A stretch of DNA of 38,213 nucleotides from a virus (lineage: Duplodnaviria; Heunggongvirae; Uroviricota; Caudoviricetes). The translations under genes were made by a program, and so were the position numbers. The notes under the pieces were generated by a model. It had not been told where the DNA came from, ran no database searches, and saw only the letters and a list, made by a program, of their open reading frames with translations. Below are positions 698 to 34,544 of the stretch, piece after piece (positions within the stretch are counted from its first letter, which is position 1; each line of letters starts with the position of its first letter). The stretch is taken from the IMG/VR virus record IMGVR_UViG_2526164668_000029, positions 1 to 38,213 of that record, one strand, 5' to 3'.

Positions 698-1060
698 GGG
701 GCTGATTCTGGATTCGACGGGATTTGCGAAACCCAAGGTGCATGCCGAGGGGCGGTTGGCCTCGTAAAAAGCCGCAAAAAATAGTCGCAAACGACGAAAA
801 CTACGCTTTAGCAGCTTAATAACCTGCTTAGAGCCCTCTCTCCCTAGCCTCCGCTCTTAGGACGGGGATCAAGAGAGGTCAAACCCAAAAGAGATCGCGT
901 GGAAGCCCTGCCTGGGGTTGAAGCGTTAAAACTTAATCAGGCTAGTTTGTTAGTGGCGTGTCCGTCCGCAGCTGGCAAGCGAATGTAAAGACTGACTAAG
1001 CATGTAGTACCGAGGATGTAGGAATTTCGGACGCGGGTTCAACTCCCGCCAGCTCCACCA
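698..1060 (+). ncRNA. ssrA: tmRNA (transfer-messenger RNA, SsrA)
   Basis: Starts GGGGCTGATTCTGGATTCGAC, contains the tag reading frame gcaaacgacgaaaactacgctttagcagcttaa (ANDENYALAA-stop), ends with the tRNA-like GGTTCAACTCCCGCCAGCTCCACCA; 363 nt. Confidence 0.95.
1015..1060. repeat. prophage attachment-site direct repeat (ssrA-proximal copy, the last 46 nt of ssrA)
   Basis: atgtaggaatttcggacgcgggttcaactcccgccagctccacca occurs here and again, identically, at 34499-34544. Confidence 0.85.
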
Positions 1061-1070
1061 AATAAATCAA

Positions 1071-1103
1071 GGGGTTACGTGAAAGCGTAGCCCCTTTTTC
1101 TTT
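1071..1103 (+). terminator. putative intrinsic terminator downstream of ssrA
   Basis: Imperfect hairpin ggggttacg / cgtagcccc followed by tttttcttt. Confidence 0.45.
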
Positions 1104-1183
1104 GGTAGTGGCGGCAAAATGGCGACAGACTTTTGCGTCCATCTTGCCTGTCGCCATCTTGAAATCATGCAAAGAGGTTTCAC

Positions 1184-1666
1184 ATGGAAGAACTTCACTT
1201 TGTTTACATCAATGCAAATGGTCGTATCGCTGTTCACTCTATACAGAGCATCAGTTATAGCGAAAATCATATACAGGGCATTTGTAAGAACACCGATCGA
1301 ATAAAAACCTTCCGAAAAGACCGCATTCTTAAACAGTACGATTCACCAGAACAAGCCATTCAGGAATGCGCGTCATTCCTCCCCGAAAGCTACTCACATC
1401 TCACTAAGCAGTCTGGTCCGAAAAAAAATACATTCGATGTGTGTTTCACCGGATTTAAGAAAGCAGATAAAGAAAGATTGGTTGATAAGGCGAATGAACA
1501 AGGATTAACGGTAAGAACCTCTATAACCCAAAGCCTTCAGATGCTCTGTTGCGGTTACAATGCAGGCCCATCAAAAGTATCGGCAGCCAGGATGAAAGGC
1601 ACAATCATCATAGATGAGCCTGGCTTTATACATTTTCTTGAAACGGGTGAGATCCCAGATGAATAA
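1184..1666 (+). CDS. hypothetical cargo protein with a BRCT-like C-terminal domain and a possible WYL-like N-terminal domain
   Basis: 160-aa ORF, visibly AT-rich against the flanking phage genes. C-terminal stretch VCFTGF...LTV...CCGYNAGPSKVSAARMKGTIIIDEPGF resembles the BRCT domain of NAD-dependent ligases. N-terminal ...HIQGICKNTDRIKTFRKDRI resembles the end of a WYL domain (weaker). Confidence 0.65.
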   Translation: MEELHFVYINANGRIAVHSIQSISYSENHIQGICKNTDRIKTFRKDRILKQYDSPEQAIQECASFLPESYSHLTKQSGPKKNTFDVCFTGFKKADKERLVDKANEQGLTVRTSITQSLQMLCCGYNAGPSKVSAARMKGTIIIDEPGFIHFLETGEIPDE

Positions 1667-1667
1667 A

Positions 1668-1685
1668 AACCTGCCGTAGCAGGTT
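1668..1685. terminator. putative bidirectional terminator between the cargo ORF and ogr
   Basis: Hairpin aacctgc-cgta-gcaggtt flanked by an A-run on one side and a T-rich run on the other, between convergent genes. Confidence 0.4.
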
Positions 1686-1692
1686 CTCTTTC

Positions 1693-1911
1693 TCAAAAAT
1701 TCATATGCCCCTGACCACCTGGCAATGGATGTGGAGGAGCAGTAGCAATCAGTGCGGGTGTCACAATAAACCGGACCACTGTTTCATGAGTAACAAAAGT
1801 GCTCCCGCAGTTAATATTTTGGCACTGGCAGTAACGCTCTTTGGTGCTTTCAGTTACTTGAAAACTGCTCCTTGTGTGTGCCGCATGACCACACTTTGGA
1901 CAATTCATCAT
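1693..1911 (-). CDS. ogr: late-gene transcription activator Ogr (zinc finger)
   Basis: MMNCPKCGHAAHTRSS...ERYCQCQNINCGSTF has the C-x2-C...C-x4-C spacing and the P2 Ogr-like C-terminus PHPLPGGQ; about 72 aa from the internal Met, the ORF track start at 1956 is probably too far upstream. Confidence 0.85.
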   Translation of the reverse strand: MMNCPKCGHAAHTRSSFQVTESTKERYCQCQNINCGSTFVTHETVVRFIVTPALIATAPPHPLPGGQGHMNF

Positions 1912-1979
1912 ATCCAGATCCCTACCTTTGCTATCAGAATCATTGTAATGATACACAAAATATCAATATTGAGAACACT

Positions 1980-3080
1980 TTATTCCATTTCAAGATCATC
2001 AATCTTCACTTCGAGTTCAATACTGGTTGTAAAACCGTTATTCGGGCTGACGGTATGTGTCAGAGTCGTAATGGTCCATTCCGCATCATCTATCGGCTGT
2101 TTAAAACCACTGACCTTCACAGGCATTTCCGTGTAGAGATCTGCCCGCCCTTCTGCCAGTTGTAGCGAAAATGACGCAACGCCGCGTTGCAGGCGTTCCC
2201 ACTGCATTTTCGCCGCTCGTTCGGCGTTGCTCCGGTTGGCATAAGTGCGATTAAGTACCAGCACGTTTTCATCCGTACCCACCAGGTAATCGCCCTGCTT
2301 CGCTTCTGGCTCTTTCTTCTGCTTCTTAGTTCTGCGCTTACGCTTCACCGTGGTGCTTTCTTTCTTCGCAGGTTCGCGGGTATGCAACCAGCTGGCAATT
2401 ACGCCCGTGTAGGCTCCGCGATCTGCCAGGGTAAATCGGTGACTGTCGCCGTCCTTGCGTGTGATAGTGATCACTGGCAGAGGTTTACCAGTGGCGCTTT
2501 TGCCCTGCCCCTGCCGGATGAATAACAGATTGCCATTTTTCACCGACGCGATGGCACCGTACTGTCGCGCCAGCCGCATCAGAAAACTGCCGTCACTCTC
2601 ATTAGTCTGGTCTATATGCTCCACGGGCTTATCCGACAGGTCTTTACCCAGTGCCATCTTCAGCTTGTGCCGCGCGGCTATTTCCTTCACCACTTCCCCG
2701 ACGGTGGTCTTATGCCACGATTTTTCACGGCGGGTATTCAGCGTTTCCCGAAAATCAGCACTTCGCGCCCGGATAGTCAGGCGGTCCGGTGCGCCAGTGT
2801 GTTCAATCTCGTCCACTGTGAATGCCCCTTTCGGGAAAAGCGGCTGCCCCTTCCAGCCCAGCGCCAGCGTAATAACCGCACCACGGCGCGGCAGCACGAT
2901 TTTTCCGTCAGCGTCATCCAGCTCCAGATCAAGCTGGTCCGCTTCAAAGCCCCGGTTATCCGTCAGCGTCAAACTCATCAGGCGGTTATCCAGCACAGTG
3001 GTGATATCCCTGCCCTCAATACTGATGCTGAATGCGGGAGTTTTGTTGCCTTTGTTAAGCAGTTCAGAGCTGAAATTCAC
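1980..3080 (-). CDS. D: tail protein D
   Basis: 366-aa ORF in the gpD position and of gpD size, directly upstream of ogr and overlapping U by 4 nt. Confidence 0.88.
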   Translation of the reverse strand: MNFSSELLNKGNKTPAFSISIEGRDITTVLDNRLMSLTLTDNRGFEADQLDLELDDADGKIVLPRRGAVITLALGWKGQPLFPKGAFTVDEIEHTGAPDRLTIRARSADFRETLNTRREKSWHKTTVGEVVKEIAARHKLKMALGKDLSDKPVEHIDQTNESDGSFLMRLARQYGAIASVKNGNLLFIRQGQGKSATGKPLPVITITRKDGDSHRFTLADRGAYTGVIASWLHTREPAKKESTTVKRKRRTKKQKKEPEAKQGDYLVGTDENVLVLNRTYANRSNAERAAKMQWERLQRGVASFSLQLAEGRADLYTEMPVKVSGFKQPIDDAEWTITTLTHTVSPNNGFTTSIELEVKIDDLEME

Positions 3081-3562
3081 GACAGCAGCCCTCCCACCGT
3101 TTTACTGATATCGCTTAAGGCAGACGTTGCCGTGTCCTGCAGATTATTCAGTTGCGCACTGAGATCACCGAACATATCGGACAGGGATTCATCCACTCGT
3201 TTGAGCGACAGGGTGAACTCAATCCGGCGCGGCATACCGTCGCGGAAAAACTCCGTTTTAGTCTGATTCAGTCCCTCAATCACATACATGCCGTAAATCG
3301 TGCCGCTGCCTTCAATCAGGGGCCATGCTTTCCCCTGTTCTGCCATCTGCTCCAGTGCCAGCAACGACAGCCTGCCGCCTGTTATTTCCGGCATAAGAAC
3401 ACCGGAAAGCGTCAGCATGTCGTTTTCCGGTCCCAGAAACTGCGTGGACGGACGTCGGTTTACCCGACTGTTTGCCGCATGTCGCCAGCTGCGTTGATAC
3501 TGCAGTTCCTGATACGGAACGGTGCGCAGCATAAACACGTACAATCCCAGCACCATCATCAT
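3077..3562 (-). CDS. U: tail protein U
   Basis: 161 aa, between T and D, overlapping stop/start with both. Confidence 0.85.
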   Translation of the reverse strand: MMMVLGLYVFMLRTVPYQELQYQRSWRHAANSRVNRRPSTQFLGPENDMLTLSGVLMPEITGGRLSLLALEQMAEQGKAWPLIEGSGTIYGMYVIEGLNQTKTEFFRDGMPRRIEFTLSLKRVDESLSDMFGDLSAQLNNLQDTATSALSDISKTVGGLLS

Positions 3563-6500
3563 GCGTCGTATCCCCCCTGATCGCTGTAGTTACTCCTGGC
3601 TTTTGCCTTCAGCCTGCGTTCACGTTCATCAAGCTGGCGTGCCACCTCCCGCGCAATATCCTGCGCACTTTGTCCTGGCTGCGTCTGAATGATGATCTGC
3701 GTCGGTGCCTCAATCCGTTGAACGAGCGGCACAGTGGCTGCGCGACTCACAATTGCTTCTCCACCTTTCGCGGGAAGTGCCAAAGGGTGCAACGGTGGAA
3801 GCTCTGCTGGCGCGGCAGCAACGCCCATCATTCCGGCAACAACGGCAGCCAGTGCAGCTGTATTTCTCCGGCTGGTCACATTTGCCGGGCCGTTAACAAT
3901 TTCCGGCCCGTTTTCACCGACGATGCCAAACTGCCCGCGCGGGATATACCCGCCGCTGTCATACATCCCCGCAAAGCCATATCCCCATGATGGAAAACCA
4001 CCCGATGGCATCATCACTTTACCGTCTGCATTCACCGTCGCAGGTTGCTGACGCGTCACGCTTTCCGGCAGTTTTGCCTTTGCGGCCTCTTTACTGACAA
4101 TGCCGAGCTTCTCCAGCAACCAGGAAACGCCGGATTTCAGGGAGTCCAGCGGATGCATGACCATATTCAGCCCTTCCGCCAGTGCCTCCCCGAATCGCCG
4201 CCCCATTGCCGCTGCGCTCTGCAGTTCGGCAGAGGTCGACTTAACGGGCGTCAGCAGATCATTAAACCAGCCCCACAGCGCCTGCACTTTGTCGCCAATC
4301 CACTGGAACACGGGCTTAAGCGGTTCGAACGCTGCACTGATGGGACCTGCCGCCGCTTTGAATCCTTCCACCACGCCACCGAGAAATGCGGTGATGGGTT
4401 GCCAGTATTTCCAGACAACCAGCGCCACGCCCGCCAGTGCAGTAACCACAAGACCTATCGGACTGAGCAGAGCACCTAACAGACCAGATATGGCATACAG
4501 GGCAACGCGCAGCATCGCCAGTGGACCAGATGCCAGTACTCGCAGCACCGTGCCTGCGGCGGCCAGTCCACCGCGCAGTACCGCCAGAGGATTCATAAAC
4601 ATCACAGCAACAGCACGTAAACCGGATAATCCAGACAGCAAAAGTGCAACCGGCGCACCTGCTATAGTTTTCAGGACATTTCCCGTCAGTGATGCCGTGC
4701 GGCGCAAAGACGACAACGGCGCAGTAAGTAAACCTGCGGCGTTGCCCGATGAAGCAAGCCCGCGTCGCAGCAGTGCCAGTGGTGCGCCAGCCAGCCAGGA
4801 CAACGCGCTGCTGGTTCGAGTTACTGCTGCCGTAACGGAAGATAACGTTTTGATACCCAACACAGAGAATCCCAGACGGATCACTGCCAGCGGCCCCAGC
4901 ACTGCAGCCAGCGCCACCGCTAAGGTGCCGAGGCCGACGGTAACCGCAGCCACAACAGCCGATGCTTTCATCAGTGTGCCTGTCAGTTCCGGGTTAGCTT
5001 CCACCCAGCGACGCAACGCCCCCGTGACGCTTTTCACCGTGTACAGAATATCCATCAGCGGCTGGCGCAGCGTTTCGCCCAGGCTGCTGAAGGTGTTCTG
5101 CGCTCCGGTTTTGACCAGCAACCACTGCGCAGAAAGTGAATCCTTGTTAATGTCGGATTCTTTCTGCATGGAGCCGAGCGCATCATTGCCCGCTGTCAGT
5201 TTTAACTGACGCTGCAGTTCCGGCAGGTTGTTTGCCAGTTTCGCCGCGTCATCGCCAAACTCTTTACCAAACAACATAGTCATGGCAGACAGGCGCTTGT
5301 CCTGCGGCAGCGCGTTTACCTTCTCCAGCACGCGCTGGATGGTTCCCATCGCATCCTTCGTCATCTGCTTTTCAATCACTTCAGGATTGAGTTTCAGCAG
5401 ATTCATCCCTTCAAAGAAACTCTTGCTTTGCATGGTGGCAATGGACAATTCACGCACCATCGCGTTTGCTGCACTGGCTGCAACCTCTGGCGCAGCGCCC
5501 AGTGTCAGGAAGGTGGAACCCAGCGCCGCCGCTTTACGATAATCCAGACGGTCAGCCACACCGCCCAGACGTTGCATCACATCAATGATGTCTGCCCCTT
5601 TCGACATGGCGTTATCATCCAGATAGTTCAGCGCATCACCGAGCTGTTCAATATTGCGGGTGGGGATTTTGTAGAGCTGGGCGATTTTCCCCAGACTTTC
5701 TGACAGTTCATCCGCTGGCAGCTCAAAGGCTGTTGCCGCCTTTGCTGCCGTACTGGCGAAGGCCAGCAGGTCACGTTTCTGATCTTCCCAGCTGTCGTCA
5801 GGGTTTGCGACGTTCATGCGCGCACCACCTTCAACCAGTGCAGCGAAGTCCACCGCACCGTTTTCCATCGGCAACTGTTCGCTGGCAGCCTTGATGGCAT
5901 CCTGCATTTCATAAAAACGTGCAGTGCGGTTGCCATTATCGTCACGCAGACCATTGACCTGCTTTGCCACACCTTTCATGGCATCTTCCATGCTGGTATA
6001 GCTTTTTACTGCCGCCATCACTGGCGCACCCATTGCCAGCCCTGCAGCCGTGGTGGTGGCTCCGGCACCTGCAATACGATCACGCACCTCCAGCGAACGG
6101 GTATAACTGGCACGCGCTGCATTCATCCTGCGCTGAGCTTCCCCCAGTCGCTTCAGCCGCGCCTCCTGTTTCGAAAGTTCCTGGTTATAACGTGATGTTT
6201 CACGGGCTAAACGGGCAGTTGCTCCCGCATCGTCTTTCGCAGAAATTCCCGCCCGGTACAGTTCAGCACGCACAAGCGCCGTCTGCTGCTGCAGCTTTTT
6301 CTGGCGTTCTTCCAGGCGCTGAACAGCCAGCCGTTGACGGCCCAGAGCAACAACCTGACGTTGCGAAGGCGGCCCCATCGCTCCCAGTTCCTGACTGAGC
6401 AAATTTGCACGCTGGCGGGCATAGTTCAGCCTGTCGCCTAATTTCTGATTTTCTGCCTGCAGCTTTCGGAAGCTGTCCAGACTGCTCCCGGCCTGATCAA

Positions 6501-6636
6501 GCTGCTTTATTGCATCGCGGGATTTTTTGACAGCAGCAGCCAGTTCTCTTGAACTGGCCTGCGCAGATCGAAATGGGCGGGTGAGCTTGTCAACCGCATT
6601 AAGAATGACCTGCAGACGCAGGTTGTTATCACTCAT
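3559..6636 (-). CDS. T: tail tape-measure protein T
   Basis: 1025-aa Ala/Leu-rich ORF with coiled-coil N-terminus and hydrophobic central segments, in the gpT position. Confidence 0.9.
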   Translation of the reverse strand: MSDNNLRLQVILNAVDKLTRPFRSAQASSRELAAAVKKSRDAIKQLDQAGSSLDSFRKLQAENQKLGDRLNYARQRANLLSQELGAMGPPSQRQVVALGRQRLAVQRLEERQKKLQQQTALVRAELYRAGISAKDDAGATARLARETSRYNQELSKQEARLKRLGEAQRRMNAARASYTRSLEVRDRIAGAGATTTAAGLAMGAPVMAAVKSYTSMEDAMKGVAKQVNGLRDDNGNRTARFYEMQDAIKAASEQLPMENGAVDFAALVEGGARMNVANPDDSWEDQKRDLLAFASTAAKAATAFELPADELSESLGKIAQLYKIPTRNIEQLGDALNYLDDNAMSKGADIIDVMQRLGGVADRLDYRKAAALGSTFLTLGAAPEVAASAANAMVRELSIATMQSKSFFEGMNLLKLNPEVIEKQMTKDAMGTIQRVLEKVNALPQDKRLSAMTMLFGKEFGDDAAKLANNLPELQRQLKLTAGNDALGSMQKESDINKDSLSAQWLLVKTGAQNTFSSLGETLRQPLMDILYTVKSVTGALRRWVEANPELTGTLMKASAVVAAVTVGLGTLAVALAAVLGPLAVIRLGFSVLGIKTLSSVTAAVTRTSSALSWLAGAPLALLRRGLASSGNAAGLLTAPLSSLRRTASLTGNVLKTIAGAPVALLLSGLSGLRAVAVMFMNPLAVLRGGLAAAGTVLRVLASGPLAMLRVALYAISGLLGALLSPIGLVVTALAGVALVVWKYWQPITAFLGGVVEGFKAAAGPISAAFEPLKPVFQWIGDKVQALWGWFNDLLTPVKSTSAELQSAAAMGRRFGEALAEGLNMVMHPLDSLKSGVSWLLEKLGIVSKEAAKAKLPESVTRQQPATVNADGKVMMPSGGFPSWGYGFAGMYDSGGYIPRGQFGIVGENGPEIVNGPANVTSRRNTAALAAVVAGMMGVAAAPAELPPLHPLALPAKGGEAIVSRAATVPLVQRIEAPTQIIIQTQPGQSAQDIAREVARQLDERERRLKAKARSNYSDQGGYDA

Positions 6637-7065
6637 CGTTGGCCCCGCTTCTCTGAATCGCTTTATACCGCCATTCCAGCACTTCGGTCAGCGGCATAAC
6701 GTCAGTAACGGATGGCGGCCAGTGAAAGATGGTGGCGATATCTGCCACCAGATCGTCAACCGTCAGGCTGTCGGTAAACCGGCAAGCACCGACTTCTTCA
6801 ACAAAAAAGTGACAACCTCAACCGACATGGCAGTGAGATCTGCCGGGTCCATCTCTGCGATTTCCTGTGCAGTCAGTGCCGGACTGGAGATGCGGGGGAT
6901 CACGGTCATCATCGCGTTCACATCCATATCCATAATGGCCTGCAGGCGTGTGCCGCGCAGCGCACCGGACTGCGGTTTACGCAGCACAATTTCGGTAATT
7001 TCTGTTTTACCGCGCATGATGGGAGTATCCAGTTTAATAGTCTTTTCAGTCTGCTTATCGCTCAT
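6629..7065 (-). CDS. E+E' tail chaperone made by programmed -1 frameshift
   Basis: Minus-strand T_TTT_TTG heptamer at 6802-6808; hand translation of the -1 frame runs open to a TGA at 6629-6631, ending ...LTEVLEWRYKAIQRSGANDE and overlapping the T start. Confidence 0.6.
6763..7065 (-). CDS. E: tail assembly chaperone E
   Basis: 100-aa ORF between FII and T; carries a slippery heptamer near its 3' end (see E+E'). Confidence 0.85.
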   Translation of the reverse strand: MSDKQTEKTIKLDTPIMRGKTEITEIVLRKPQSGALRGTRLQAIMDMDVNAMMTVIPRISSPALTAQEIAEMDPADLTAMSVEVVTFLLKKSVLAGLPTA

Positions 7066-7119
7066 TTTGCTGTCCTGTAAATTGGGTTCTGGCGCGGCAT
7101 TCCGCGCCGTTCAGATACA

Positions 7120-7635
7120 TCAGAGGCCGAGGGCGTTGCGGTGCGCTTCCATCAGGTCCACACCGTCCACAATTTCCACCATGTTGATAAGGTCCACTTC
7201 ATAGAGCACCTCACCATTGATAGTCAGCTTCGCGTAGCTGTTGGTACTGGTCACTTTGGTGGTGTTGCTTTCGCCCGTCTTCCACTCGCCGGAATCCACT
7301 TCTTTGTGACGTCCACGCACCACAAGCTCCACGGCCTGCACTTCTCCGGTATCGTCACGCTGGATAGAGCCGGTGAAGCGCAACTGGATGCCATCCACCG
7401 TGGCTTTGCCCATCTGTTTAAACAGCAGCAGTTCAGTACCACCAATGGAAAATTCTGTGTCCAGCGCACTGTCATCAAGCCCCAGATCCACATCCACTGC
7501 ACCCGGCATTCCGCCGCCGCGATACTTCTCATATTTGCGGGTGAATTTCGGCAGCGTCAGCGACTCAACGATCCCCTGCCAGTTGTTCCCGTCATTAAAC
7601 AGGTTCAGGTGTTTTAATTTGCGTGGTAAAGCCAT
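7120..7635 (-). CDS. FII: major tail tube protein FII
   Basis: 171 aa, MALPRKLKHLNLFNDG... N-terminus, downstream of FI. Confidence 0.9.
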   Translation of the reverse strand: MALPRKLKHLNLFNDGNNWQGIVESLTLPKFTRKYEKYRGGGMPGAVDVDLGLDDSALDTEFSIGGTELLLFKQMGKATVDGIQLRFTGSIQRDDTGEVQAVELVVRGRHKEVDSGEWKTGESNTTKVTSTNSYAKLTINGEVLYEVDLINMVEIVDGVDLMEAHRNALGL

Positions 7636-7644
7636 GTTGTCCCC

Positions 7645-8817
7645 TTACGCGCTGACCTGGCTAGAGAAATTCACCAGGTACTGATCGGTGATGCGCTGAC
7701 GCAGCATCAGGTTTTCAAGTGGCGGCACTGGCGTGTAGTCGTAGTCGATGGTGAGTTTTCCGGCTTTCAGCGTGTCTTTGTCGTTCACCGACTCATCCAG
7801 CCAGCAATCACCACCAATGAGATAGCCCTGACTGACCAGGCTGCGCATTTTGGCGCGGATACCCTCGATAATGTCGCGGGCCAGCGACGGGTTAAGCGGT
7901 TTATCCACCGCCCACATGTGTGCTTCTGCCATCGTGTCCATCAGCACCTGCGCCGTGCGGGTGTAGTTTTCGAAGGCAAAGAGCGGGTCATCACTCAGGC
8001 AGCGGGAACCCCAGAAGCGGAAACCGTCTTTACGCACAAGCGTGGTGACGTCGTTCTGGTTCAGCAGACCTGCATCGGTTGCCGGGTCCTGCAGATCCCA
8101 GAACACATCAGCAGAAATTCCGGTGACACCGTTCACGCCCACGTTGGACAGGCTTTTGTGCCATCCGGTCTGCTCGTCAATTTTGGCGCGCAGACCAAGC
8201 GCACGGGCGGTGGCATATGCCGTTGCTTCGGCATTCAGCACCGTGTCCCAGCCAGTAAAGTCAGGCCAGATCAGCATCCCTTCGCGCTGGCTGAAGTTTT
8301 CACGGTAAGTGATCGCCTCCTGTACCGTCTTGCAGCCATACGCTGACAGGTAAGCAAATCCACGCAGGCTTTGCGCCACGCTCAGCAACTCAGTAGCTAC
8401 CGCCTTGGTGTCGTGGCCTGGCACGCCGAGAATGCGCGGTTTAACGCCGAGCTGTGACTGGGCAGATAACAGGGCTTTCATGCCTGTTTTTTTACCTTCA
8501 GCAGTCACTGCGCCGATGATATTGGTCGTGGTTTCTTCTTCCGTTTCACCCTGCGGCACACGCACAACAACGGTCACGGGTTTTGCCTGGTCAGCGATGG
8601 CGTCCAGCGAACGGGCCAGCGTACCGGACTCACCCGCTTTACCGCTGGCAGTCAGCACATCAGTGATCAGCACGGGTTTATTAAGAGGAAACATTTTTGC
8701 ATCGGCATCATCGCCCGTGCAGACCATACCCACGATGGCGGTGCTCACCGTGGTAATGGATCGGGTGCCTTCGTTGACTTCAACAACGCGCACTCCGTGG
8801 TGGTAATCCTGAGCCAT
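7645..8817 (-). CDS. FI: contractile tail sheath protein FI
   Basis: 390 aa, recognisable as P2 gpFI (…WPDF..WDTV…[12 protein letters not shown]…). Confidence 0.9.
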
Positions 8818-8893
8818 AGTGGCGAACCTCCTGATTGGATTAGGCTTCGCCCTATGTTGAAGTGATTGTGCCTGACAAACAGCTAAGCGCAGT

Positions 8894-8911
8894 TGTGTCG
8901 TTATTCACACA
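8894..8911. promoter_or_regulatory. candidate Ogr-dependent late promoter element upstream of FI
   Basis: TGT-N12-ACA dyad (TGTgtcgttattcacACA) about 80 bp upstream of the FI start. Confidence 0.45.
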
Positions 8912-8959
8912 AAATAACGGTATTTGTCCGCTTACAGGAAAAATCAAAATAATGCTGAC

Positions 8960-9526
8960 TCAGGGCGATTCATTGTTCTCATTCGCCGGAAATTTTCTAT
9001 AAATGGTAGAAACGCCCACATCAAAAATCAGTGCAATACGCTGTCTTGATTCTCCGGCCTCGAGTAAACGTCCAATCTGTGCCCACTGTTCGGTAGTCAA
9101 CTTAGGACGGCGTCCACCTACTCTGCCTTTAGCACGAGCTGCAGCCAGCCCTGCCCTGGTACGTTCAACTATCAGTTCGCGTTCCATTTCAGCCAGGGCA
9201 CCCATGACATGAAAAAAGAAACGGCCCATTGGGGTACTGGTATCAATACTGTCAGTCAGACTTCTGAAATTCACGCCGCGCTGGCGCAACTCTTCTATCA
9301 GAGTAACAAGATGCCGCATACTGCGCCCCAACCTGTCCAGCTTCCAGACAACCAGTGTGTCACCTGCCGATAGTGTCCTGAGCAGTTTTTTAAGCCCCGG
9401 TCTGTCGGACTTAGTACCACTGATTTTGTCCTCAAAAATCCGCTCACATCCCGCGCAGTTCAGTGCATTACGTTGCAAATCGGTGTTCTGGTCATTTGTT
9501 GACACGCGTACATAGCCAATAAGCAT
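8960..9526 (-). CDS. serine DNA invertase (Hin/Gin/Cin/Pin family)
   Basis: MLIGYVRVSTNDQNTDLQRNAL... is the Gin/Hin N-terminus with the catalytic Ser; C-terminal HTH. True start is the internal Met at 9526, preceded by an in-frame upstream extension in the ORF track. Confidence 0.9.
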   Translation of the reverse strand: MLIGYVRVSTNDQNTDLQRNALNCAGCERIFEDKISGTKSDRPGLKKLLRTLSAGDTLVVWKLDRLGRSMRHLVTLIEELRQRGVNFRSLTDSIDTSTPMGRFFFHVMGALAEMERELIVERTRAGLAAARAKGRVGGRRPKLTTEQWAQIGRLLEAGESRQRIALIFDVGVSTIYRKFPANENNESP

Positions 9527-9553
9527 GATCAATCCCCTGAATAAAAACCGGGG

Positions 9554-10102
9554 ATGATGCCAGTTAGCCATTATCTCTGCATTTTCATAAACGTTGGTTT
9601 GGGAGAAGGCTCTGCATTACCTGTTGGTGTGCCTGTTCCGTGGCCTTCAGTCACACCGCCAACAGGCTGGCTGAAATGCAACGGTGCGGCTTTTTCTGCT
9701 GAAGAATACCCGGAACTGGCAAAGGCTTACCCGACCAATAAATTGCCTGATTTACGCGGTGAATTTATTCGTGGCTGGGATGACGGTCGCGGGATTGATA
9801 CTGGTCGCGCTTTGCTTAATTGGCAGCCACACACAATTTTGGACCATGCACACTATATGGAATTATGGACAGGGGACGGACTCGCCGCAGGAAGTGCACG
9901 GGAAGGAGTAAACCCAGGAATACTGGCTACATACGGTGACGGGGGAATAGTTAAAACGGACGAACCCGGTCTTAAGGTGCCTTCCTCACTACGAGCTATT
10001 AGTACTCGTAGTGTAAAACGTTTTGGTGAAATTAGTGGAAATGTAGGTACAGAAACTCGTCCTCGTAACATCGCTTTTAATTATATCGTAAGGGCCGCAT
10101 GA
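9554..10102 (+). CDS. alternative tail-fibre C-terminal cassette, expressed only after inversion
   Basis: Downstream of the crossover motif (encoding GLGE) it reads ...LPVGVPVPWPSVTPPTGWLKCNGAAFSAEEYPELAKAYP, a typical fibre tip; the in-frame stub upstream of the crossover is not a real N-terminus. Confidence 0.65.
   Translation: MMPVSHYLCIFINVGLGEGSALPVGVPVPWPSVTPPTGWLKCNGAAFSAEEYPELAKAYPTNKLPDLRGEFIRGWDDGRGIDTGRALLNWQPHTILDHAHYMELWTGDGLAAGSAREGVNPGILATYGDGGIVKTDEPGLKVPSSLRAISTRSVKRFGEISGNVGTETRPRNIAFNYIVRAA
9583..9608. repeat. left crossover site of the invertible tail-fibre segment
   Basis: ttttcataaacgttggtttgggagaa is an inverted copy (22/26) of 11563-11588 and resembles gix/hix sites. 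Confidence 0.6.
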
Positions 10103-10704
10103 TGAATAAAGCTGTATTAAATAGCGAACTCATCACCACAAAGGCGGGAGACATTACCGTTTACAATTATGATGGTGAGACACGGGAATATATTTCCACA
10201 TCAACTGAATATCTTGCTGTGGGTGTCGGTATCCCGGCATGTTCCTGTTTAGATGCTCCTGGCTCATATAAAGCTGGTTATGCAATTTGCCGTTCTGCAG
10301 ATTTTAACTCATGGGAATATGTGCCAGACCATCGCGGTGAAATCGTCTATAGCACCGAAACAGGAGAATCAAAAGAAATCACAGCTCCGGGTGATTACCC
10401 TGAAAACACGACCACTATCGCTCCATTTACGCCATACGATAAATGGGATGGTGAGAAATGGGTGACCGATACTGAGGCACAGCATAGCGCAGCAGTCGAA
10501 GCGGCAGAAGCACAGCGTCAGTCACTGATTGATGCTGCAATGGCTTCCATTAGTCTGATTCAACTGAAATTACAGGCCGGGCGGAAACTGACGCAGGCAG
10601 AAACAACCCGGCTTAACGCTGTGCTGGATTACATTGACGCGGTGACTGCAACAGATACCAGCACCGCGCCGGATGTCATCTGGCCTGAACTGCCGGAGGC
10701 GTAG
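10099..10704 (+). CDS. tail fibre assembly protein for the alternative cassette
   Basis: 201 aa; C-terminal motif LNAVLDYIDAV...STAPDVIWPELP shared with the convergent assembly gene. Confidence 0.75.
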   Translation: MMNKAVLNSELITTKAGDITVYNYDGETREYISTSTEYLAVGVGIPACSCLDAPGSYKAGYAICRSADFNSWEYVPDHRGEIVYSTETGESKEITAPGDYPENTTTIAPFTPYDKWDGEKWVTDTEAQHSAAVEAAEAQRQSLIDAAMASISLIQLKLQAGRKLTQAETTRLNAVLDYIDAVTATDTSTAPDVIWPELPEA

Positions 10705-11119
10705 GCCATTCAATATCTGGAGCACTGGAGATATCAACCAGTTCCAGTGCGTCCAGATAATCCAGCCATAAATTATATTGTTCCAGCTCGTCACCTTTCA
10801 GACGACCAATAGCAGCTTTGCCAGGCCACTGATGGGTATTGATGTAGGTATTGACTTCAGAAACCAAAGATATTTTTTTCATTTCAGCCGTCAACACCTC
10901 ATCCTCTTTTGAAGGGGGTGGGGAATTAATCCATACTGGCAGTCCTGAACTGTCTGCGCCAATTTCTTTCCCTTCTGGATGCAGCCCAAGAAATTGCTCA
11001 TATGTTTCTCTGGTAATTTCAATAACATCATCAGGAAGCGTTCCCGCATCCTCATATTCTGGAAACAATTCTTGCAGATAAAAACTTTTACTTCCGGGTG
11101 AAAAGAATACTGAGTTCAT
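10676..11119 (-). CDS. tail fibre assembly protein (gpG-like)
   Basis: 147 aa directly downstream of H; C-terminal LWLDYLDAL...SSAPDIEWP motif. Confidence 0.8.
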   Translation of the reverse strand: MNSVFFSPGSKSFYLQELFPEYEDAGTLPDDVIEITRETYEQFLGLHPEGKEIGADSSGLPVWINSPPPSKEDEVLTAEMKKISLVSEVNTYINTHQWPGKAAIGRLKGDELEQYNLWLDYLDALELVDISSAPDIEWPTPPAVQAR

Positions 11120-11121
11120 TC

Positions 11122-15048: not shown

Positions 15049-15094
15049 AGGGAAAGGTTGCCATCAGGGGAAGAAAGGCGGCAGTGCTGCAACT

Positions 15095-28647: not shown

Positions 28648-29501
28648 GCACGTACTCCGTACACGGCAGAACTATCCACGCCACGCGAATAATCAAATCC
28701 CATCCAGCAGCACGGCCCGGAAACAGCAATGATTTCTGTTGCTGATTTACCCTCGCCAGCTGCCACACCGATGCTGCGTTTTACCTTGATATAGTGGTGA
28801 GTAAAATTGCGATACAGCGAACGGATCAGGGATGTGTCACTGTTAGAAACAATGACTGGATGTCCTTCTGATGACCGATGTTCAAGAACGGATGCCAGGT
28901 GATACTGGTCATCTTCAGTGAAACCATCAGTGTGATAGCCGGAAAACGTACCGTCATACGGCGGATCGCAATACACCACATCTCCCGCGTGCAACATTGC
29001 CAGCGTTTCATCGAAGCTGGCGCAGATAAATGTTGCCCGCTGGGCTTTTTCTGCAAATGCACGAATTTCTTTTTCAGGGAAATACGGATTTTTATAATTA
29101 CCGTAGGGAATGTTGAAATGCCCGCTCTTGTTATAGCGACATAAACCACGGTAACCGTGACGATTGAGATACAGGAAATATACCGCTTTCATGAAATCAG
29201 TAATTTCAGTGGAGTAATTAAACTCCTGCCTTATGTTGTAATAAGCCACCTCCCTGTTTGCGATCTCAAATAAAACTCTGGCGCGAGATATAAACGATTC
29301 ACAATCAGCGGCAACCTTTTTATAGAGGTTGATTAAATCAGGATTAATATCCGCAACCAAATAGCTGGGGTAATCCGTCTCCATCATCACAGCACAAGAA
29401 CCCGCGAAAGGTTCAACCAGTCGCGGGCCAGCAGGAAGGTGTTTTTTCAGTTCGGACATAATGGCGGTTTTATTACCCGCCCATTTCAGGATGGTGCTCA
29501 T
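28644..29501 (-). CDS. dam: DNA adenine methyltransferase (Dam-like, N6-adenine)
   Basis: DPPY catalytic motif (VYCDPPYDG) and N-terminal SAM-binding FAGS; stop overlaps the gene A start. Confidence 0.9.
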
Positions 29502-29725
29502 ACAGCACCTCCGTTGTAATGTTTACCTTTCAGCTCTGCGATTTCCTGACAGGTAATGCAAAGCTGCACTCCCGGAATGGCGCGGCGGCGTGCTGGCGGA
29601 ATTGGCGCTTCACACTCAATGCAAAGCACGCGAGACACGCCCGGTGTTTTGGCACGGGCAGCACGGATGTGGCGCTGGCGTTCTTCTTCAACGCGCTGCT
29701 GTACGAGATCCATTGCATCAGCCAT
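29498..29725 (-). CDS. TraR/DksA-type C4 zinc-finger protein
   Basis: 75 aa with CIEC...CITC pair, as in phage TraR-like proteins. Confidence 0.7.
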   Translation of the reverse strand: MADAMDLVQQRVEEERQRHIRAARAKTPGVSRVLCIECEAPIPPARRRAIPGVQLCITCQEIAELKGKHYNGGAV

Positions 29726-29964
29726 TAGTGGATCTCCTGCGCTTCGTTCTGGATTGCTTCAGCAGTCACACGCAGCAGTTCTGCCGCTTCGACGTGGTTT
29801 AGCTGGCGGGATGTAATATGACACGCCAGACTATCAAGGCGAGCTGCCATTGCTTCAGCCCTTGCTCGGCGTTCTTCCAGACGAGCCTCTGTCAGTAAAA
29901 TATTAAGCCCTGCGTCATCCGGTCCGGTTTTGGTCGTGAGGGTTTCAATATTACGCATAATCAA
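29725..29964 (-). CDS. hypothetical early-region phage protein
   Basis: 79-aa ORF in operon with the neighbouring early genes. Confidence 0.5.
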   Translation of the reverse strand: MIMRNIETLTTKTGPDDAGLNILLTEARLEERRARAEAMAARLDSLACHITSRQLNHVEAAELLRVTAEAIQNEAQEIH

Positions 29965-30025
29965 TTCTCCTGAATTTAGATAAAGGGATGCCTGGCGGGT
30001 TTACGCCATTAATTTCATTAGTTGG

Positions 30026-30367
30026 TTAATTCGGCATGGTTAGCCGTCTGGGAAATAAGCTCACCACTGCACGAAAATGATTCATTGCTTTAATCAACTC
30101 CCGCTTTTCGTCAGTGGTCAGCTCATTAATGCTGATGCTATGACGTTCAGCTGGAATTTTTGCCATAAAGAATATGGCAGCCAGTGCCCGTTTATTTTGT
30201 TCGCTATTAATATCCCGTGAATCACGCATATCTTTAATAAACCGCTCAAGCTCTGACTCAATATTCAGGCCAAAAACTTTCGCCCTTAACTCCGCAATGT
30301 GATTAAGTCCATTCAGGCGTTCACCTGGGCTTAATGGAACAGTCGCCGCAGTGCAATTAATTGCCAT
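30026..30367 (-). CDS. hypothetical early-region phage protein
   Basis: 113-aa ORF between cII and gene A. Confidence 0.5.
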   Translation of the reverse strand: MAINCTAATVPLSPGERLNGLNHIAELRAKVFGLNIESELERFIKDMRDSRDINSEQNKRALAAIFFMAKIPAERHSISINELTTDEKRELIKAMNHFRAVVSLFPRRLTMPN

Positions 30368-30389
30368 AATTCATATCCCCAAAACGCAA

Positions 30390-30614
30390 CTATCGTTGTT
30401 TGTTATTACGGTAACGTTCAAGAGGAGATACATTTTTTCGTATCGTCTCTTTAACCTGCTCTCCCCGTAAAAACGTCCCATCCTTTAGCGTGAAAAAGTA
30501 ACTGCCATCGCCCGACAACGACGGATAACAACAGAGCAAATCATCTTCAGGTACTGAATAACTCTCCCCTCTGTAACGAAACTGATAAACCACTTCACCT
30601 TCCGCTGCATACAT
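30390..30614 (-). CDS. hypothetical early-region phage protein
   Basis: 74-aa ORF with protein-like composition; overlaps the next ORF. Confidence 0.4.
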   Translation of the reverse strand: MYAAEGEVVYQFRYRGESYSVPEDDLLCCYPSLSGDGSYFFTLKDGTFLRGEQVKETIRKNVSPLERYRNNKQR

Positions 30615-30781
30615 TTTGACTTTCTCTGTTTCCTCGTGGTCAATTCAGACAGCAATTCGTCTTGTGAATGACATGGATGCCAGCGTTTTCCATCCTCACC
30701 CATGATCCAGCCGTGACCGTAGTGCATTGCCGGGCTTTGCTTTACCAGCAGCGATGCAAATGATGGTTCTTTCGTCAGCAT
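30485..30781 (-). CDS. hypothetical early-region phage protein (overlapping; may be the 5' part of a frameshifted gene)
   Basis: About 98 aa from the internal Met just downstream of cII; its C-terminal third looks non-protein-like and overlaps 30390-30614. Confidence 0.3.
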   Translation of the reverse strand: MLTKEPSFASLLVKQSPAMHYGHGWIMGEDGKRWHPCHSQDELLSELTTRKQRKSKCMQRKVKWFISFVTEGRVIQYLKMICSVVIRRCRAMAVTFSR

Positions 30782-30788
30782 AAGCACC

Positions 30789-31298
30789 TCACAGCAACCC
30801 GAATGAAGCACCGAGACCAGTTACGGTATCAACTGCACTTGCCATCGCAGGATTAGCCTGTAAACGGGCCTGCAATGAAACAGCAGCCAGCGCCATCAGT
30901 CGTGTAACAGAGTTAATGCTGCTGATCGCATCACGACGGCCTGCACTGGTTTTTACATCGCCAGAAACCGCACCAGCCGCGACACGCCCTATCTCTGCAG
31001 TTGCACTCATGACGTAATGCGGTAGTTTCTCTTTTGCCACCTCATTAATCGGAACACATGGCAGACAATGAATCTGTGCCAGAAAACCATCTACCAGCGT
31101 TGAATCTTCAGTCAGATCGGTAAGTAGCCAGATATCTCGTGCAGTGAGCTGATGCGGTTGTTCCGGGTTCAGCTTGTTACGCAGCGTCTGGACGTTCATT
31201 CCCGCGAGTTCTGCTAGCTTCGCCATATTGTGACGTAGTGCAAAAGCTCTACAGGCTTCATCAAAATGCGGATGTTTGGAAATCTTGTAATCAAACAT
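30789..31298 (-). CDS. cII: 186-type CII lysogeny-establishment activator
   Basis: 169 aa; MFDYKISKHPHFDEACRAFALRHNMAKLAELAGMNVQTLRNKLNPEQPHQ... matches coliphage 186 CII as I recall it. Confidence 0.75.
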   Translation of the reverse strand: MFDYKISKHPHFDEACRAFALRHNMAKLAELAGMNVQTLRNKLNPEQPHQLTARDIWLLTDLTEDSTLVDGFLAQIHCLPCVPINEVAKEKLPHYVMSATAEIGRVAAGAVSGDVKTSAGRRDAISSINSVTRLMALAAVSLQARLQANPAMASAVDTVTGLGASFGLL

Positions 31299-31330
31299 GG
31301 TGCTCCCTTAGAAAGTTCCCATAATTGAAA

Positions 31331-31573
31331 TTACTTACCAACAATGACGCGGAAGTTGGAATGACCGAGGGATTCACGGACCTGATCAGTTTTGTACATC
31401 AGATAACGCAGGCTTACGCGGCCTTTGTTTTTTTCTTTCTTGACCATGTACTTAGCGAGTTGACCATGGTGAATTTTTTGGTAAACAGACCCGCGGGAAA
31501 TCCCTTCCCATTCAGCGAATTCAGCAGGCGTAGCCATCTCTTTTGGTACACGAATTGAAATATCTGTGCTCAT
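31331..31573 (-). CDS. apl: Apl/Cox-type excisionase and lytic repressor
   Basis: 80-aa HTH protein, first gene of the leftward early operon, divergent from cI. Confidence 0.65.
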   Translation of the reverse strand: MSTDISIRVPKEMATPAEFAEWEGISRGSVYQKIHHGQLAKYMVKKEKNKGRVSLRYLMYKTDQVRESLGHSNFRVIVGK

Positions 31574-31675
31574 AGTGCAGTATCTCTTGGTTTAAGCTCG
31601 TTTTATGATGTTTAACCCCAACTTCTAAACTCTCATATTAGAAGTTAAACACAAAAATACGATCTCGTTATTGGA

Positions 31676-32326
31676 TTGTCAAATGGAGAGTTCATCTTGA
31701 AGATTAGTACAGGTGCAAATACGGGAGGGAGAGAGACCATCAAAAGGCTGATGACAGCCTATGGTTTCAACACTCAGATAGCGTTGGTTGAACACCTCGA
31801 AGCATCAAAAAGCACCATGGCAAACAGGATGTTACGTGATAGCTTCCCTGCTGACTGGGTTATTCAATGTGCCCTTGAAACAGGTATTTCTCTTCTTTGG
31901 CTGACAACGGGCCAAGGGGAAATGTATCCTCAAACAGAAGAAAAAAATAAGTTCAAAAACGAGAGTTCACCTATAGTTCGCCCCCTTTCAAAGATAGTTA
32001 TCCCATCAGTAAGGCAGGCAACCATTGAGAACGGAACGCTCGAAGAGATGGGGGATGTTTTCCTTGATCAGACTTTGATACCCGGAAAAGCCGAATATTG
32101 TTTGTACGTCAAAGCTAACGACGGCAATTACATTGTTGATACATCAACAAAACAGCTTAGTAACGGAATTTGGCTCATAGACATCGACGGTATGAAAAAC
32201 ATCGTCAAAATTGCGCGCATACCTGGAAACAAAATAGTAGTTAACCAAGATGACACTTCATTTGAATGTTCTGTAGATGATGTGGAAGTCGTAGGACGTG
32301 CAGTCAAAGTAATCAAGAACCTCTAA
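31676..32326 (+). CDS. cI: 186-type CI immunity repressor
   Basis: HTH N-terminus (...AYGFNTQIALVEHLE...CALETGISLLWLTTGQGE) followed by int; start codon uncertain (TTG at 31676 or ATG at 31751). Confidence 0.75.
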   Translation: MSNGEFILKISTGANTGGRETIKRLMTAYGFNTQIALVEHLEASKSTMANRMLRDSFPADWVIQCALETGISLLWLTTGQGEMYPQTEEKNKFKNESSPIVRPLSKIVIPSVRQATIENGTLEEMGDVFLDQTLIPGKAEYCLYVKANDGNYIVDTSTKQLSNGIWLIDIDGMKNIVKIARIPGNKIVVNQDDTSFECSVDDVEVVGRAVKVIKNL

Positions 32327-32329
32327 CTT

Positions 32330-33349
32330 ATGACCATCAGAAAACAGCCGAACGGAAAATGGTTGTGTGAGTGCTATCCCAATGGACGCAATGGTAAGCG
32401 CGTGCGTAAGCAATTTGCTACCAAAGGCGAAGCTATTGCATTTGAAAGCTTCACAATGGAAGAAGTGAACAAAAAACCATGGCTGGGGGAAAAGGAAGAT
32501 CGGCGACATTTATCAGAATTAATTGAGCTGTGGTATTCCCTGTATGGTCAAACACTCACAGACCCCAAGCGCCTCATGGCGAAACTTAGTATTATCTGTA
32601 ATGGTCTAGGCGATCCCATCGCTTCAGAACTGACAGCCGGTGACTTTACGAAATACCGCGAAGCACGGTTAAAAGGTGAAGTACGAAATGAAGATGGCAC
32701 GCTTATGTCGCCCGTTAAGCCCCGCACGGTAAACCTTGAACAGCGCAATCTATCATCTGTTTTTGGTACACTGAAAAAGCTGGGCCACTGGTCAGCCCCC
32801 AACCCGCTTGCCGGGCTGCCAACATTTAAAATTGCTGAGAGTGAATTGGCGTTCCTGACCCCGGAAGAAATTAAACGTCTGCTGGATGCCTGTGCTGATT
32901 CTCAAAACTCTAGTCTGCTGACGGTTGCAAAAATATGTCTGGCCACCGGCGCGAGATGGAGTGAAGCCGAAAACCTGCAGGGCCATCAATTATCAAAATA
33001 CCGGATCACCTACACCAAAACTAAAGGCAAGAAAAACCGAACCGTACCGATATCTCAGGAGCTATATGAAGAACTCCCCAAAAACAGGGGGAAACTATTC
33101 ACGCCCTGCAGAAAAGCTTTTGAGCGCGCAGTAAAACGAGCCGGTATAGACCTGCCTGAAGGCCAGTGCACACACGTGTTGCGCCATACATTCGCCAGTC
33201 ACTTCATGATGAATGGCGGAAACATATTGGTACTACGCGATATTCTTGGTCACTCTGATATAAAAATGACGATGGTTTATGCTCATTTTTCGCCAGATCA
33301 TTTAGAAGATGCTGTAACAAAAAATCCACTGGCTATGTTGGGATACTGA
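32330..33349 (+). CDS. int: tyrosine integrase (P2/186 type)
   Basis: 339 aa; catalytic region ...HVLRHTFAS...LGHSDIKMTMVYAHF with the R-H-R-Y residues. Confidence 0.9.
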   Translation: MTIRKQPNGKWLCECYPNGRNGKRVRKQFATKGEAIAFESFTMEEVNKKPWLGEKEDRRHLSELIELWYSLYGQTLTDPKRLMAKLSIICNGLGDPIASELTAGDFTKYREARLKGEVRNEDGTLMSPVKPRTVNLEQRNLSSVFGTLKKLGHWSAPNPLAGLPTFKIAESELAFLTPEEIKRLLDACADSQNSSLLTVAKICLATGARWSEAENLQGHQLSKYRITYTKTKGKKNRTVPISQELYEELPKNRGKLFTPCRKAFERAVKRAGIDLPEGQCTHVLRHTFASHFMMNGGNILVLRDILGHSDIKMTMVYAHFSPDHLEDAVTKNPLAMLGY

Positions 33350-33351
33350 TA

Positions 33352-34383
33352 ATGGAAAAAAGCATTAGCACATTTATGTACCTATCCGTTTTATTAGGTT
33401 GTATATTCTTATTTATAAAATATCGACTTTATGTTCTCGATCATAGAAGCCTGTTCCAACAACCCTTGTTCTGGGCTGCAATAGGCCTACCTTTATTCAC
33501 CAGCCTTTACTTTGGTTCTTTTGTCTGGATAGATAAAATACACTCTTTTAGTCTTACAAGTCACGGTTATGAGAGATTTTTAGATATCTCGAAATTACCA
33601 TTACTCATCCTTGCATCTGCAGTACCTTTAGTTTCAATAGTAAACAACCTACACAGAACCAAACAAACAGAAAAACAGATCTCAGAGGCAGAAAGGAAAA
33701 ACAGGGTAGATTTATATTACAACCACATGAAATTTCATCTTGATTTATATAAAAAAATCGAAGGAAAAAGAATAGGCAGCTACTACCCGGTTCAGGAAGC
33801 TCAAGCTGAAGCAATCTACCAACATTTTATAAAACATCCACAAGAACTATATAGAAAAGCATACCCACAATCTACGCCTGATGATTCTCAACAATTAGAT
33901 ATTAATGAGCAATTTGTTATTGATTTACACAAATGTTGGGTAGAAATCAACGCAAGACTCAAGCAATTATCCGAGAGTGAAAATCAAATACATCCTACAG
34001 AGGAACTTTGCACAACAAAGATGAGAATATTTGTAGGAGTTATGATTATTTATGAAAAAACTTGTAAACTGTTGTGTTTAGGTGGATTTCATTATAAAAA
34101 GTCATTTGTAATAAATGATAGTTATAATAAATACCAAGTTTATTCACCATTTTATGATTTTGGCACTCTGTACGAATCACTGCAATCCTTAGAAGAGATA
34201 ACCTACGCCTTCTTGGATACTTGCAGAAATGAAGTGGTAAACTTGTACTTCCCTATAGAAGATAAAATTTTGATATATGGTGAAGGGATTCTAGAGAATT
34301 GGTTCAAGTATTCTCAGTTCTTGATCACTATAGCTTATCAACCCGCCAAGATGTCTCGCTTACCCCAGCTGAGACGCGATTGA
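33352..34383 (+). CDS. hypothetical 3-TM membrane cargo protein between int and the attachment repeat
   Basis: 343 aa, very AT-rich; three N-terminal hydrophobic helices then a soluble domain; ATG 2 nt after the int stop. Confidence 0.7.
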   Translation: MEKSISTFMYLSVLLGCIFLFIKYRLYVLDHRSLFQQPLFWAAIGLPLFTSLYFGSFVWIDKIHSFSLTSHGYERFLDISKLPLLILASAVPLVSIVNNLHRTKQTEKQISEAERKNRVDLYYNHMKFHLDLYKKIEGKRIGSYYPVQEAQAEAIYQHFIKHPQELYRKAYPQSTPDDSQQLDINEQFVIDLHKCWVEINARLKQLSESENQIHPTEELCTTKMRIFVGVMIIYEKTCKLLCLGGFHYKKSFVINDSYNKYQVYSPFYDFGTLYESLQSLEEITYAFLDTCRNEVVNLYFPIEDKILIYGEGILENWFKYSQFLITIAYQPAKMSRLPQLRRD

Positions 34384-34498
34384 TGATGGCGACATTTTGG
34401 CGGCAGAGCTTTAAAAACAGATAAAACTGTCAAACACCACATAACACTAAAGTATTGTTTTTAAACATAAATCATTATTTTTTCTGTAGTAAAAATGG

Positions 34499-34544
34499 TA
34501 TGTAGGAATTTCGGACGCGGGTTCAACTCCCGCCAGCTCCACCA
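34499..34544. repeat. prophage attachment-site direct repeat (distal copy)
   Basis: Exact 46-bp copy of 1015-1060. Confidence 0.85.

Follow-up and report, generated by a model that had tools for sequence, protein, structure and literature searches.

The window analyzed here, a stretch of 38,213 nucleotides (nt; IMG/VR virus record IMGVR_UViG_2526164668_000029), is a piece of an Escherichia coli chromosome in which two independent elements lie in series at the 3' end of ssrA, the gene for transfer-messenger RNA (tmRNA). Next to the gene is a Fels-2/186-type P2-like prophage (Peduoviridae), and directly beyond it lies the remnant of an island with a P4-type integrase gene. The reading that these are separate elements and that the island was resident first is given a probability of about 0.85, the order of arrival being suggested by sequence comparison between strains. 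The arrangement is real, ordinary and already known in kind, and dozens of publicly available complete genomes contain its exact junction.

The host was recognized from the smpB-ssrA flank, which was matched by 5426 of 5426 complete E. coli genomes. ARAGORN and Rfam found a single full-length tmRNA gene, with ANDENYALAA as the encoded tag peptide. The longest direct repeat of the window was an exact 45-mer that occupies 1016-1060 and 34500-34544, its two copies starting 33,484 bp apart; this distance is the length of the prophage unit with one core (a 33.4-kb element). An exact duplication of the last 46 nt of ssrA at both prophage ends had been claimed in the original prediction; the duplication is indeed exact, but its length is 45 nt, the preceding base being G at 1015 and T at 34499. 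No chance copies of the 45-mer were expected from 100 dinucleotide-preserving shuffles, even with three mismatches allowed.

That a P2/186-like prophage fills the interval between the repeats, as had also been predicted, was borne out by the collinear gene content of annotated relatives and by Peduoviridae records, such as Escherichia phage 500465-1 and Cartapus, which covered 95% of positions 1061-24000 at 97% identity. The phage attachment site (attP) was rebuilt in silico by fusing positions 34382-34544 (right end) with positions 1061-1183 (left end), and the phage collection was searched with the product. In the free phage Cartapus, the right arm, core and left arm of the rebuilt site were continuous (98% coverage, 92% identity, exact 45-nt core) and stood in the gene order CI, int, cargo, attP, 160-amino-acid (aa) open reading frame (ORF), ogr, D. 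Partial matches were obtained in SEN8, RE2010, SopEPhi and Fels-2; in the Fels-2 record, this stretch is labelled attP. Because the Cartapus site is continuous, the prophage is exactly the DNA between the repeats, and everything from 34545 onward lies outside it. The final 45 nt of ssrA are now derived from the phage attP.

The signature by which Islander recognizes an integrated element was present in the window: the prophage is bounded by an intact ssrA on one side and, on the other, by a displaced 3' fragment that has kept the orientation of the gene, a tyrosine integrase gene lies inside the repeat-bounded interval, and the free form (Cartapus) carries a continuous attP through one core. 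The phage integrase is full length relative to that of Salmonella phage SEN8, to which it is 92% identical, and is 39% identical to P2 Int. A 186-type switch was indicated by the CI domains, the Cox/Apl match to phrog_575 and the CII gene annotated in relatives, and the integrase targets an RNA gene through a long core, the 45 nt within ssrA. The genes for integrase, Cox/Apl and CI are all intact.

Beyond the distal repeat, a P4-type integrase gene starts after 166 nt and reads away from the repeat. Its type and direction had both been foreseen in the original prediction, and the type was confirmed by domain and family tests run on the intact allele of EC5502, which has the architecture Arm-DNA-bind_3 (DUF4102; PF13356), Phage_int_M (PF22022) and Phage_integrase (PF00589) and passed NCBIfam NF007246 with 440.6 bits against a cut-off of 434. 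In the window, however, codon 111 is TAA (35040-35042), where the intact 409-aa alleles of other strains have CAA. A terminator-like hairpin 3' of the ssrA end is carried separately by the phage (1069-1096) and by the island (34594-34608).

Occupancy of ssrA across E. coli strains

Comparison with strains holding only one of the elements, which had been proposed as the check on a tandem, was made in silico, and island-only, phage-only and tandem states were all found. A synthetic ssrA-island junction was covered over at least 80% of its length in up to 978 of the 5426 complete genomes, a count that may include related islands, as the query held only 200 nt of the island; at least 80% of 34300-38213 was present in 554 genomes. 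One island-only example, a record labelled 'DH5alpha' (NZ_CP026085.1), has the order ssrA, int, ORF, receiver gene, HEF_HK gene, IS3, truncated ygaQ and glaH. The label of this record looks doubtful, since it has this island at ssrA and not the CP4-57 of K-12 MG1655. The phage-only state was represented by strain 2012EL-2448, where the native flank ATCATGATTGGACGG directly adjoins the attR core and ygaQ is intact; the same flank lies directly 3' of the CP4-57 attR in K-12.

The left arm of this type of phage abutted ssrA in 174 genomes. About 63 complete genomes had the junction of phage and this island; five matched at 99.5-99.8% identity, and three were inspected. Other tandems paired the phage with other partners: strain ACN001 has a related phage and a different P4-integrase island, and in strain PSS-08-2 the prophage of the window (100.0% identity over 11.7 kb) adjoins a true P4-like satellite, beyond which lies a third fragment of ssrA, a short one (NZ_AP027679.1, 3448362-3471000). 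The PSS-08-2 satellite is complete, with int, psu, delta, ash, an icd-like gene and a primase-helicase gene, so that one attachment site there holds a stack of P2-type helper and P4-type satellite. In all six of the six tandem loci examined, the phage was the element nearer ssrA. Strains were 100% identical on the right side of the attR core, with divergence of phage arms and cargo on the left side; island DNA was 99-100% identical between strains, and the phages in front of it varied.

The far end of the island was likewise constant. In relatives, the island comprises int, the small ORF, the receiver gene, the HEF_HK/HATPase_c gene and IS3, followed by a 5'-truncated ygaQ and glaH, and measures about 6.7 kb. 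Its right end is the IS3 abutting the truncated ygaQ in island-only and tandem strains alike, and all island-bearing strains inspected were without ypjA, ypjB/C, the tRNA-Ile gene ileY and the 5' part of ygaQ. Searches with a 25-mer allowing three mismatches, an ungapped 45-mer, an exact 24-mer and deletion variants found no distal ssrA fragment behind the island in four relatives. These observations are consistent with a single IS3-associated deletion that also took the island attR; with its attR and the adjacent chromosome lost in this way, the island would be fixed in place. A short distal fragment is kept in K-12 (CCGCCAGC-CCACCA) and in PSS-08-2 (CCGCCAGC----CCA), in each case followed by ATCATGATTGGACGG, ypjA, ileY and ygaQ, and the P4-type identity blocks at ssrA measure only about 10-14 nt (K-12 psaA and PSS-08-2).

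Order of the two integrations

The events that would account for these loci begin with an island, carrying a P4-type integrase gene, that integrated at the very 3' terminus of ssrA. The island would then have lost its distal attachment site, ypjA, ileY and the 5' part of ygaQ through the IS3-associated deletion and so become fixed, and in this strain its integrase would additionally have gained the nonsense codon. A Fels-2/186-type phage, with an attP carrying a 45-bp copy of the ssrA 3' end, would have arrived later. Recombination of this attP with the full-length ssrA by the phage integrase would have rebuilt an intact ssrA from phage-borne sequence and the phage terminator, and the former 45-nt terminus, now orphaned, would have come to lie at the distal edge of the prophage, just before the island integrase gene.

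Successive integrations with the island first, pushed away from the tmRNA gene by the phage, were what the original prediction had proposed; the comparison of strains supports this, and the order cannot be read from the structure alone. The island is favored as the earlier arrival because the island and its IS3/ygaQ scar are common to island-only and tandem strains, because it is immobile, because its sequence hardly varies, in contrast to the arms and cargo of the phages, and because the phage of the window is identical to the one in PSS-08-2, a strain without the island and its scar. The lengths of the attachment cores are also informative. Since P4-type blocks extend over only 10-14 nt, a P4-type attR would be unusable as a bacterial attachment site (attB) by a phage that needs 45 nt; such a phage must enter the full-length ssrA and therefore ends up proximal, as in the tandem loci examined. 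The position of the P2-type phage next to the gene is thus explained by a 45-nt core that exists only in full-length ssrA, as against the much shorter P4-type fragments.

The reverse order, in which the P2-like phage came first and the island then entered the 45-nt ssrA fragment at attR, is unlikely. It would give a map identical to that observed, and the displaced fragment ends in a complete CGCCAGCTCCACCA and P4-type elements use only the last 10-14 nt (see also PMC10107115, Table 1), making the fragment a possible secondary attB. However, the scar without a distal fragment, shared by island-only and tandem strains, points to an island that was immobilized before the diverse phages came; the near invariance of the island beside differing phages and the finding, in an island-free strain, of a phage 100% identical over 11.7 kb to that of the window argue in the same direction, and the island-only junction is much commoner than the tandem junction. 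A wider form of the same idea would make the Fels-2-type phage, free or integrated, a portable landing pad for P4-type elements, its own satellites included, because the 45-bp attP core contains the whole short P4-type target (CGCCAGCTCCACCA). We regard this as a speculative and rather improbable proposal; if it were true, some ssrA tandems, PSS-08-2 for example, would arise by satellite entry into the helper attR, physically linking helper and satellite. Given the decayed island, such an origin is unlikely for the window, and in any single array the data are equal for both orders.

The remaining readings fared worse. A P4-type integrase beside a P2-like phage recalls a satellite and its helper, and the identical phage of PSS-08-2 does adjoin a true P4-like satellite, but in the window and four relatives the island holds only int, the small ORF, the HEF_HK/receiver pair and IS3, and its integrase is only 50% identical to that of the PSS-08-2 satellite, which makes a helper-satellite pair very unlikely here. 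That the 34.5-38.2 kb region, with its P4-type integrase, is simply part of the prophage is still less probable: the two regions are adjacent and some elements carry two recombinases, but Cartapus joins right arm, core and left arm without any island DNA, island-only and phage-only strains exist, and the same phage has different neighbors in different strains. The separation of the island from the prophage, on which the original prediction depended, accordingly withstood testing, membership of a single element being contradicted by the Cartapus attP and by the single-occupancy strains. A misassembled second repeat or junction is the least credible reading of all; three frameshift or nonsense lesions hint at imperfect sequence quality, but the same junction recurs in about 63 independent complete genomes, including the five at 99.5-99.8% identity.

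Several points nevertheless weigh against an island-first history. A phage that arrived first, followed by an island entering its attR, would yield the identical final structure, and island-only strains could in principle come from tandem strains by precise phage excision. The figures given above are counts of genomes and not of independent phage gains, and the island-only count has the breadth already noted. The far end of the island was seen in relatives, as the window stops at 38213, and the three lesions, in gene A, in integrase codon 111 and in the small ORF, could be sequencing errors.

Gene content of the prophage and the island

The features of the window are collected in Table 1.

Table 1. 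Annotated features of the window, in order of position, with the basis of each assignment
Feature	Positions	Strand	Basis
smpB (SsrA-binding protein), chromosomal flank	1-483	+	ORF; annotated smpB in matching genomes
ssrA (tmRNA gene), intact	698-1060	+	ARAGORN; Rfam RF00023, full length, 295.8 bits
attL core, 45-nt identity block (tmRNA T-arm, 3' acceptor strand, CCA)	1016-1060	+	Repeat search; Rfam alignment position
Fels-2/186-type P2-like prophage (Peduoviridae)	1061-34499	.	Repeat spacing; phage-record identity; gene content of annotated relatives
Phage-supplied intrinsic terminator for ssrA, 12-bp stem then T-run	1069-1106	+	Same sequence after core in Cartapus attP
Cargo ORF beside attL, 160 aa, BRCT/ligase C-terminus-like	1184-1666	+	phrog_2561, 2.4e-76; weak PADLOC PDC-S48 match; beside attP in Cartapus
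Late module: ogr, D, U, tape measure, tube, sheath, DNA invertase and tail-fiber segment, baseplate, lysis, head, terminase, portal	1693-23867	.	ORFs; annotation of collinear relatives
Invertible tail-fiber segment with DNA invertase	8960-11119		ORFs; collinear relatives
PD-T7-1 anti-phage defense gene, variable slot beside portal gene	23915-25324	-	PADLOC PDLC04073, 1.3e-196
Phage replication endonuclease (gene A type), frameshifted	26232-28647	-	Split ORFs; alignment to intact 2415-nt allele
Cox/Apl-like excisionase and repressor	31331-31573	-	phrog_575, phrog_6912
CI repressor (186 type)	31676-32326	+	Pfam Phage_CI_repr and Phage_CI_C
Phage integrase, intact 339-aa tyrosine recombinase, 186/Fels-2 type	32330-33349	+	Pfam Int_N and Phage_integrase
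Variable cargo ORF between int and attP, 343 aa	33352-34383	+	phrog_17460 only (unknown function)
Phage attP right arm, becoming attR arm	34386-34499	+	92-94% conserved among phages with different cargo; continuous with core in Cartapus
attR core, displaced 45-nt ssrA 3' fragment; phage/island boundary	34500-34544	+	Exact repeat; strain comparison
Island left arm with own terminator-like hairpin (34594-34608 and T-run); abuts ssrA directly in island-only strains	34545-34709	+	
P4-type integrase of island, pseudogene in the window	34710-35939	+	Pfam; NCBIfam; allele comparison
Small island ORF, frameshifted at about 36143	35978-36394	+	62 aa here versus 138 aa in relatives
Island cargo, 582-aa protein with Response_reg_2 receiver domain	36465-38213	-	Pfam PF19192

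The prophage has a P2-type late and structural module with annotated homologs of D, U, T, sheath, tube, baseplate, N, O, P and Q. Within the tail-fiber segment, an intact 203-aa serine DNA invertase gene adjoins oppositely oriented ORFs for an alternative tail-fiber C terminus and a chaperone, an arrangement suggestive of a host-range switch of the Gin/Cin type. The DNA invertase gene is frameshifted in a related record, CP019275.1. The gene A-type replication endonuclease gene of the window has one additional T at about 26931 compared with the intact 2415-nt alleles of EC5502 and PSS-08-2, which splits it into ORFs of 579 aa and 273 aa. With this frameshift, possibly real and possibly a sequencing error, the prophage falls short of a complete, potentially viable phage genome; if the lesion is real, excision is probably still possible, because Int and Cox/Apl are intact, and replication would not be.

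Cargo genes occupy three places in the prophage. The slot beside the portal gene holds the PD-T7-1 gene (469 aa, low GC) and, in closely related prophages, the retron Ec67 reverse transcriptase gene (WP3-S18-ESBL-09) or a gene for a TIR-domain protein, a DUF262 protein or a P-loop NTPase. The 160-aa ORF between attL and ogr, also of low GC, resembles the BRCT-containing C terminus of an NAD-dependent ligase or a DEDDh exonuclease; phrog_2561 is labelled 'DNA ligase', and the Cartapus protein is annotated as a 'putative exonuclease'. The slot between int and attP is taken by an anti-phage dCTP deaminase gene in EC5502, by a RES-domain protein gene in Cartapus and by the 343-aa ORF in the window. 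The latter gave no Pfam, PADLOC or NCBIfam match; among its 48 unnamed homologs, one had a HEPN-type Pfam match (PF18735). Its AlphaFold model is confident (pLDDT 88) and largely helical, and no fold match to the model was found in the PDB. The ORF is a candidate for a defense or exclusion gene not yet characterized.

In the island, no satellite or phage genes were found in the window and the four relatives, psu/sid/delta, ash/cnr and the alpha primase-helicase gene being absent, so that the island does not belong with the P4-like satellites. Its cargo is the receiver gene and, directly past the window end, a partner gene seen in relatives that encodes a HEF_HK/HATPase_c protein (PF19191 and PF02518; positions 23833-25551 of relative locus L001). 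The HEF_HK and Response_reg_2 families have been described for predicted NTP-dependent conflict systems, and PADLOC returned no match for the HEF_HK/receiver pair of the island. The receiver gene is frameshifted in EC5502.

A second 'ssrA tmRNA' of 177 nt, called by PGAP at 34368-34544 (Rfam, 52 bits; threshold, 47), was rejected as an artifact, as only its last 45-50 nt align and 267 model positions are skipped. The orphan attR fragment is miscalled as tmRNA by RefSeq (PGAP) elsewhere too, at 20024-20200 of relative locus L004 and at 20568-20744 of the PSS-08-2 locus (L130). The miscall is a systematic annotation artifact at the ends of Fels-2-type prophages.

Comparison with known ssrA elements

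The locus shows how the ssrA hotspot stacks elements, and beyond correct annotation it matters little; the content useful for strain biology is the phage cargo (PD-T7-1 and two ORFs of unknown function) and the HEF_HK/receiver pair of the island, rather than the tandem layout. No tDNA is more enriched as an integration target than the tmRNA gene, and for tDNAs in general 125 tandem arrays of at least two members are catalogued in Islander (PMC4383910). In E. coli and Salmonella, the ssrA flank has been described as a site of 'extreme prophage diversity' (PMC3603311), a different element occupies ssrA in each of E. coli W, K-12, B and Crooks (PMC3032704), integrases of the 186 type favor tRNA genes, with Fels-2 and SopEPhi using ssrA (PMC3448106), and tandem integration via a shared attB is the textbook view (PMC8112680). 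Among the matches listed for species-representative genomes, the 45-mer was kept exactly in many Enterobacterales (Citrobacter, Enterobacter, Kluyvera, Pantoea, Xenorhabdus, Photorhabdus and Serratia), and two or three exact copies were present in Franconibacter pulveris, Enterobacter sp. EA-1 and Citrobacter pasteurii, which suggests that ssrA may be occupied in the same way well beyond E. coli.

The prophage has a P2-like genome collinear with those of Cartapus (Peduoviridae, Elveevirus) and its relatives 500465-1, SEN8, RE2010 and SopEPhi, and it shares with Cartapus the identical attP core, arms at 92% identity and the order CI, int, cargo, attP, 160-aa ORF and ogr. It differs from Cartapus in the 343-aa ORF that replaces the RES-domain protein, in the PD-T7-1 gene of the portal-proximal slot and in the frameshift of gene A. 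The island resembles CP4-57 of E. coli K-12 (intA/slpA) in having a P4-type integrase gene directly 3' of ssrA that reads away from it, and both occupy the slot between ssrA and ygaQ/glaH. By integrase identity, gene content and attR, however, the island is not a CP4-57 element: the integrases are only 48% identical (IntA), alpA, yfjI and other CP4-57 genes are lacking, and whereas CP4-57 has kept its 13-14-nt attR (psaA, a delta-T variant), no psaA-like fragment was found for the island in relatives.

As in the tandem arrays of Islander (PMC4383910), an intact tDNA is followed by serial elements, each with a tyrosine integrase gene, and a 3' fragment in direct orientation lies between them; the second member has its own integrase gene, a pseudogene in the window. 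Unlike in those arrays, the distal member was without its own ssrA fragment in the four relatives, the window itself ending inside the island. It is therefore not a second mapped island by the strict Islander definition and would score as a degraded neighbor.

The closest parallel is the ssrA locus of Salmonella LT2, where, according to Table 1 of PMC10107115 (citing Williams 2003), Fels-2 with a P2 integrase and the wild-type fragment CGCCAGCTCCACCA is accompanied by Stm27X with a P4 integrase. As tabulated for LT2, a single genome has both a Fels-2-group phage with a P2-type integrase and a P4-type-integrase island at its ssrA 3' end, and, as with Fels-2, whose record partly matches the rebuilt attP, the displaced fragment in the window keeps the wild-type CGCCAGCTCCACCA. 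In comparison with the table entry for LT2, the host species and the island are different, and the island here is a truncated remnant with a nonsense-mutated integrase. Because LT2 shows the same pairing of P2-type and P4-type integrases at ssrA, the tandem described here belongs to a kind of arrangement that was already known.

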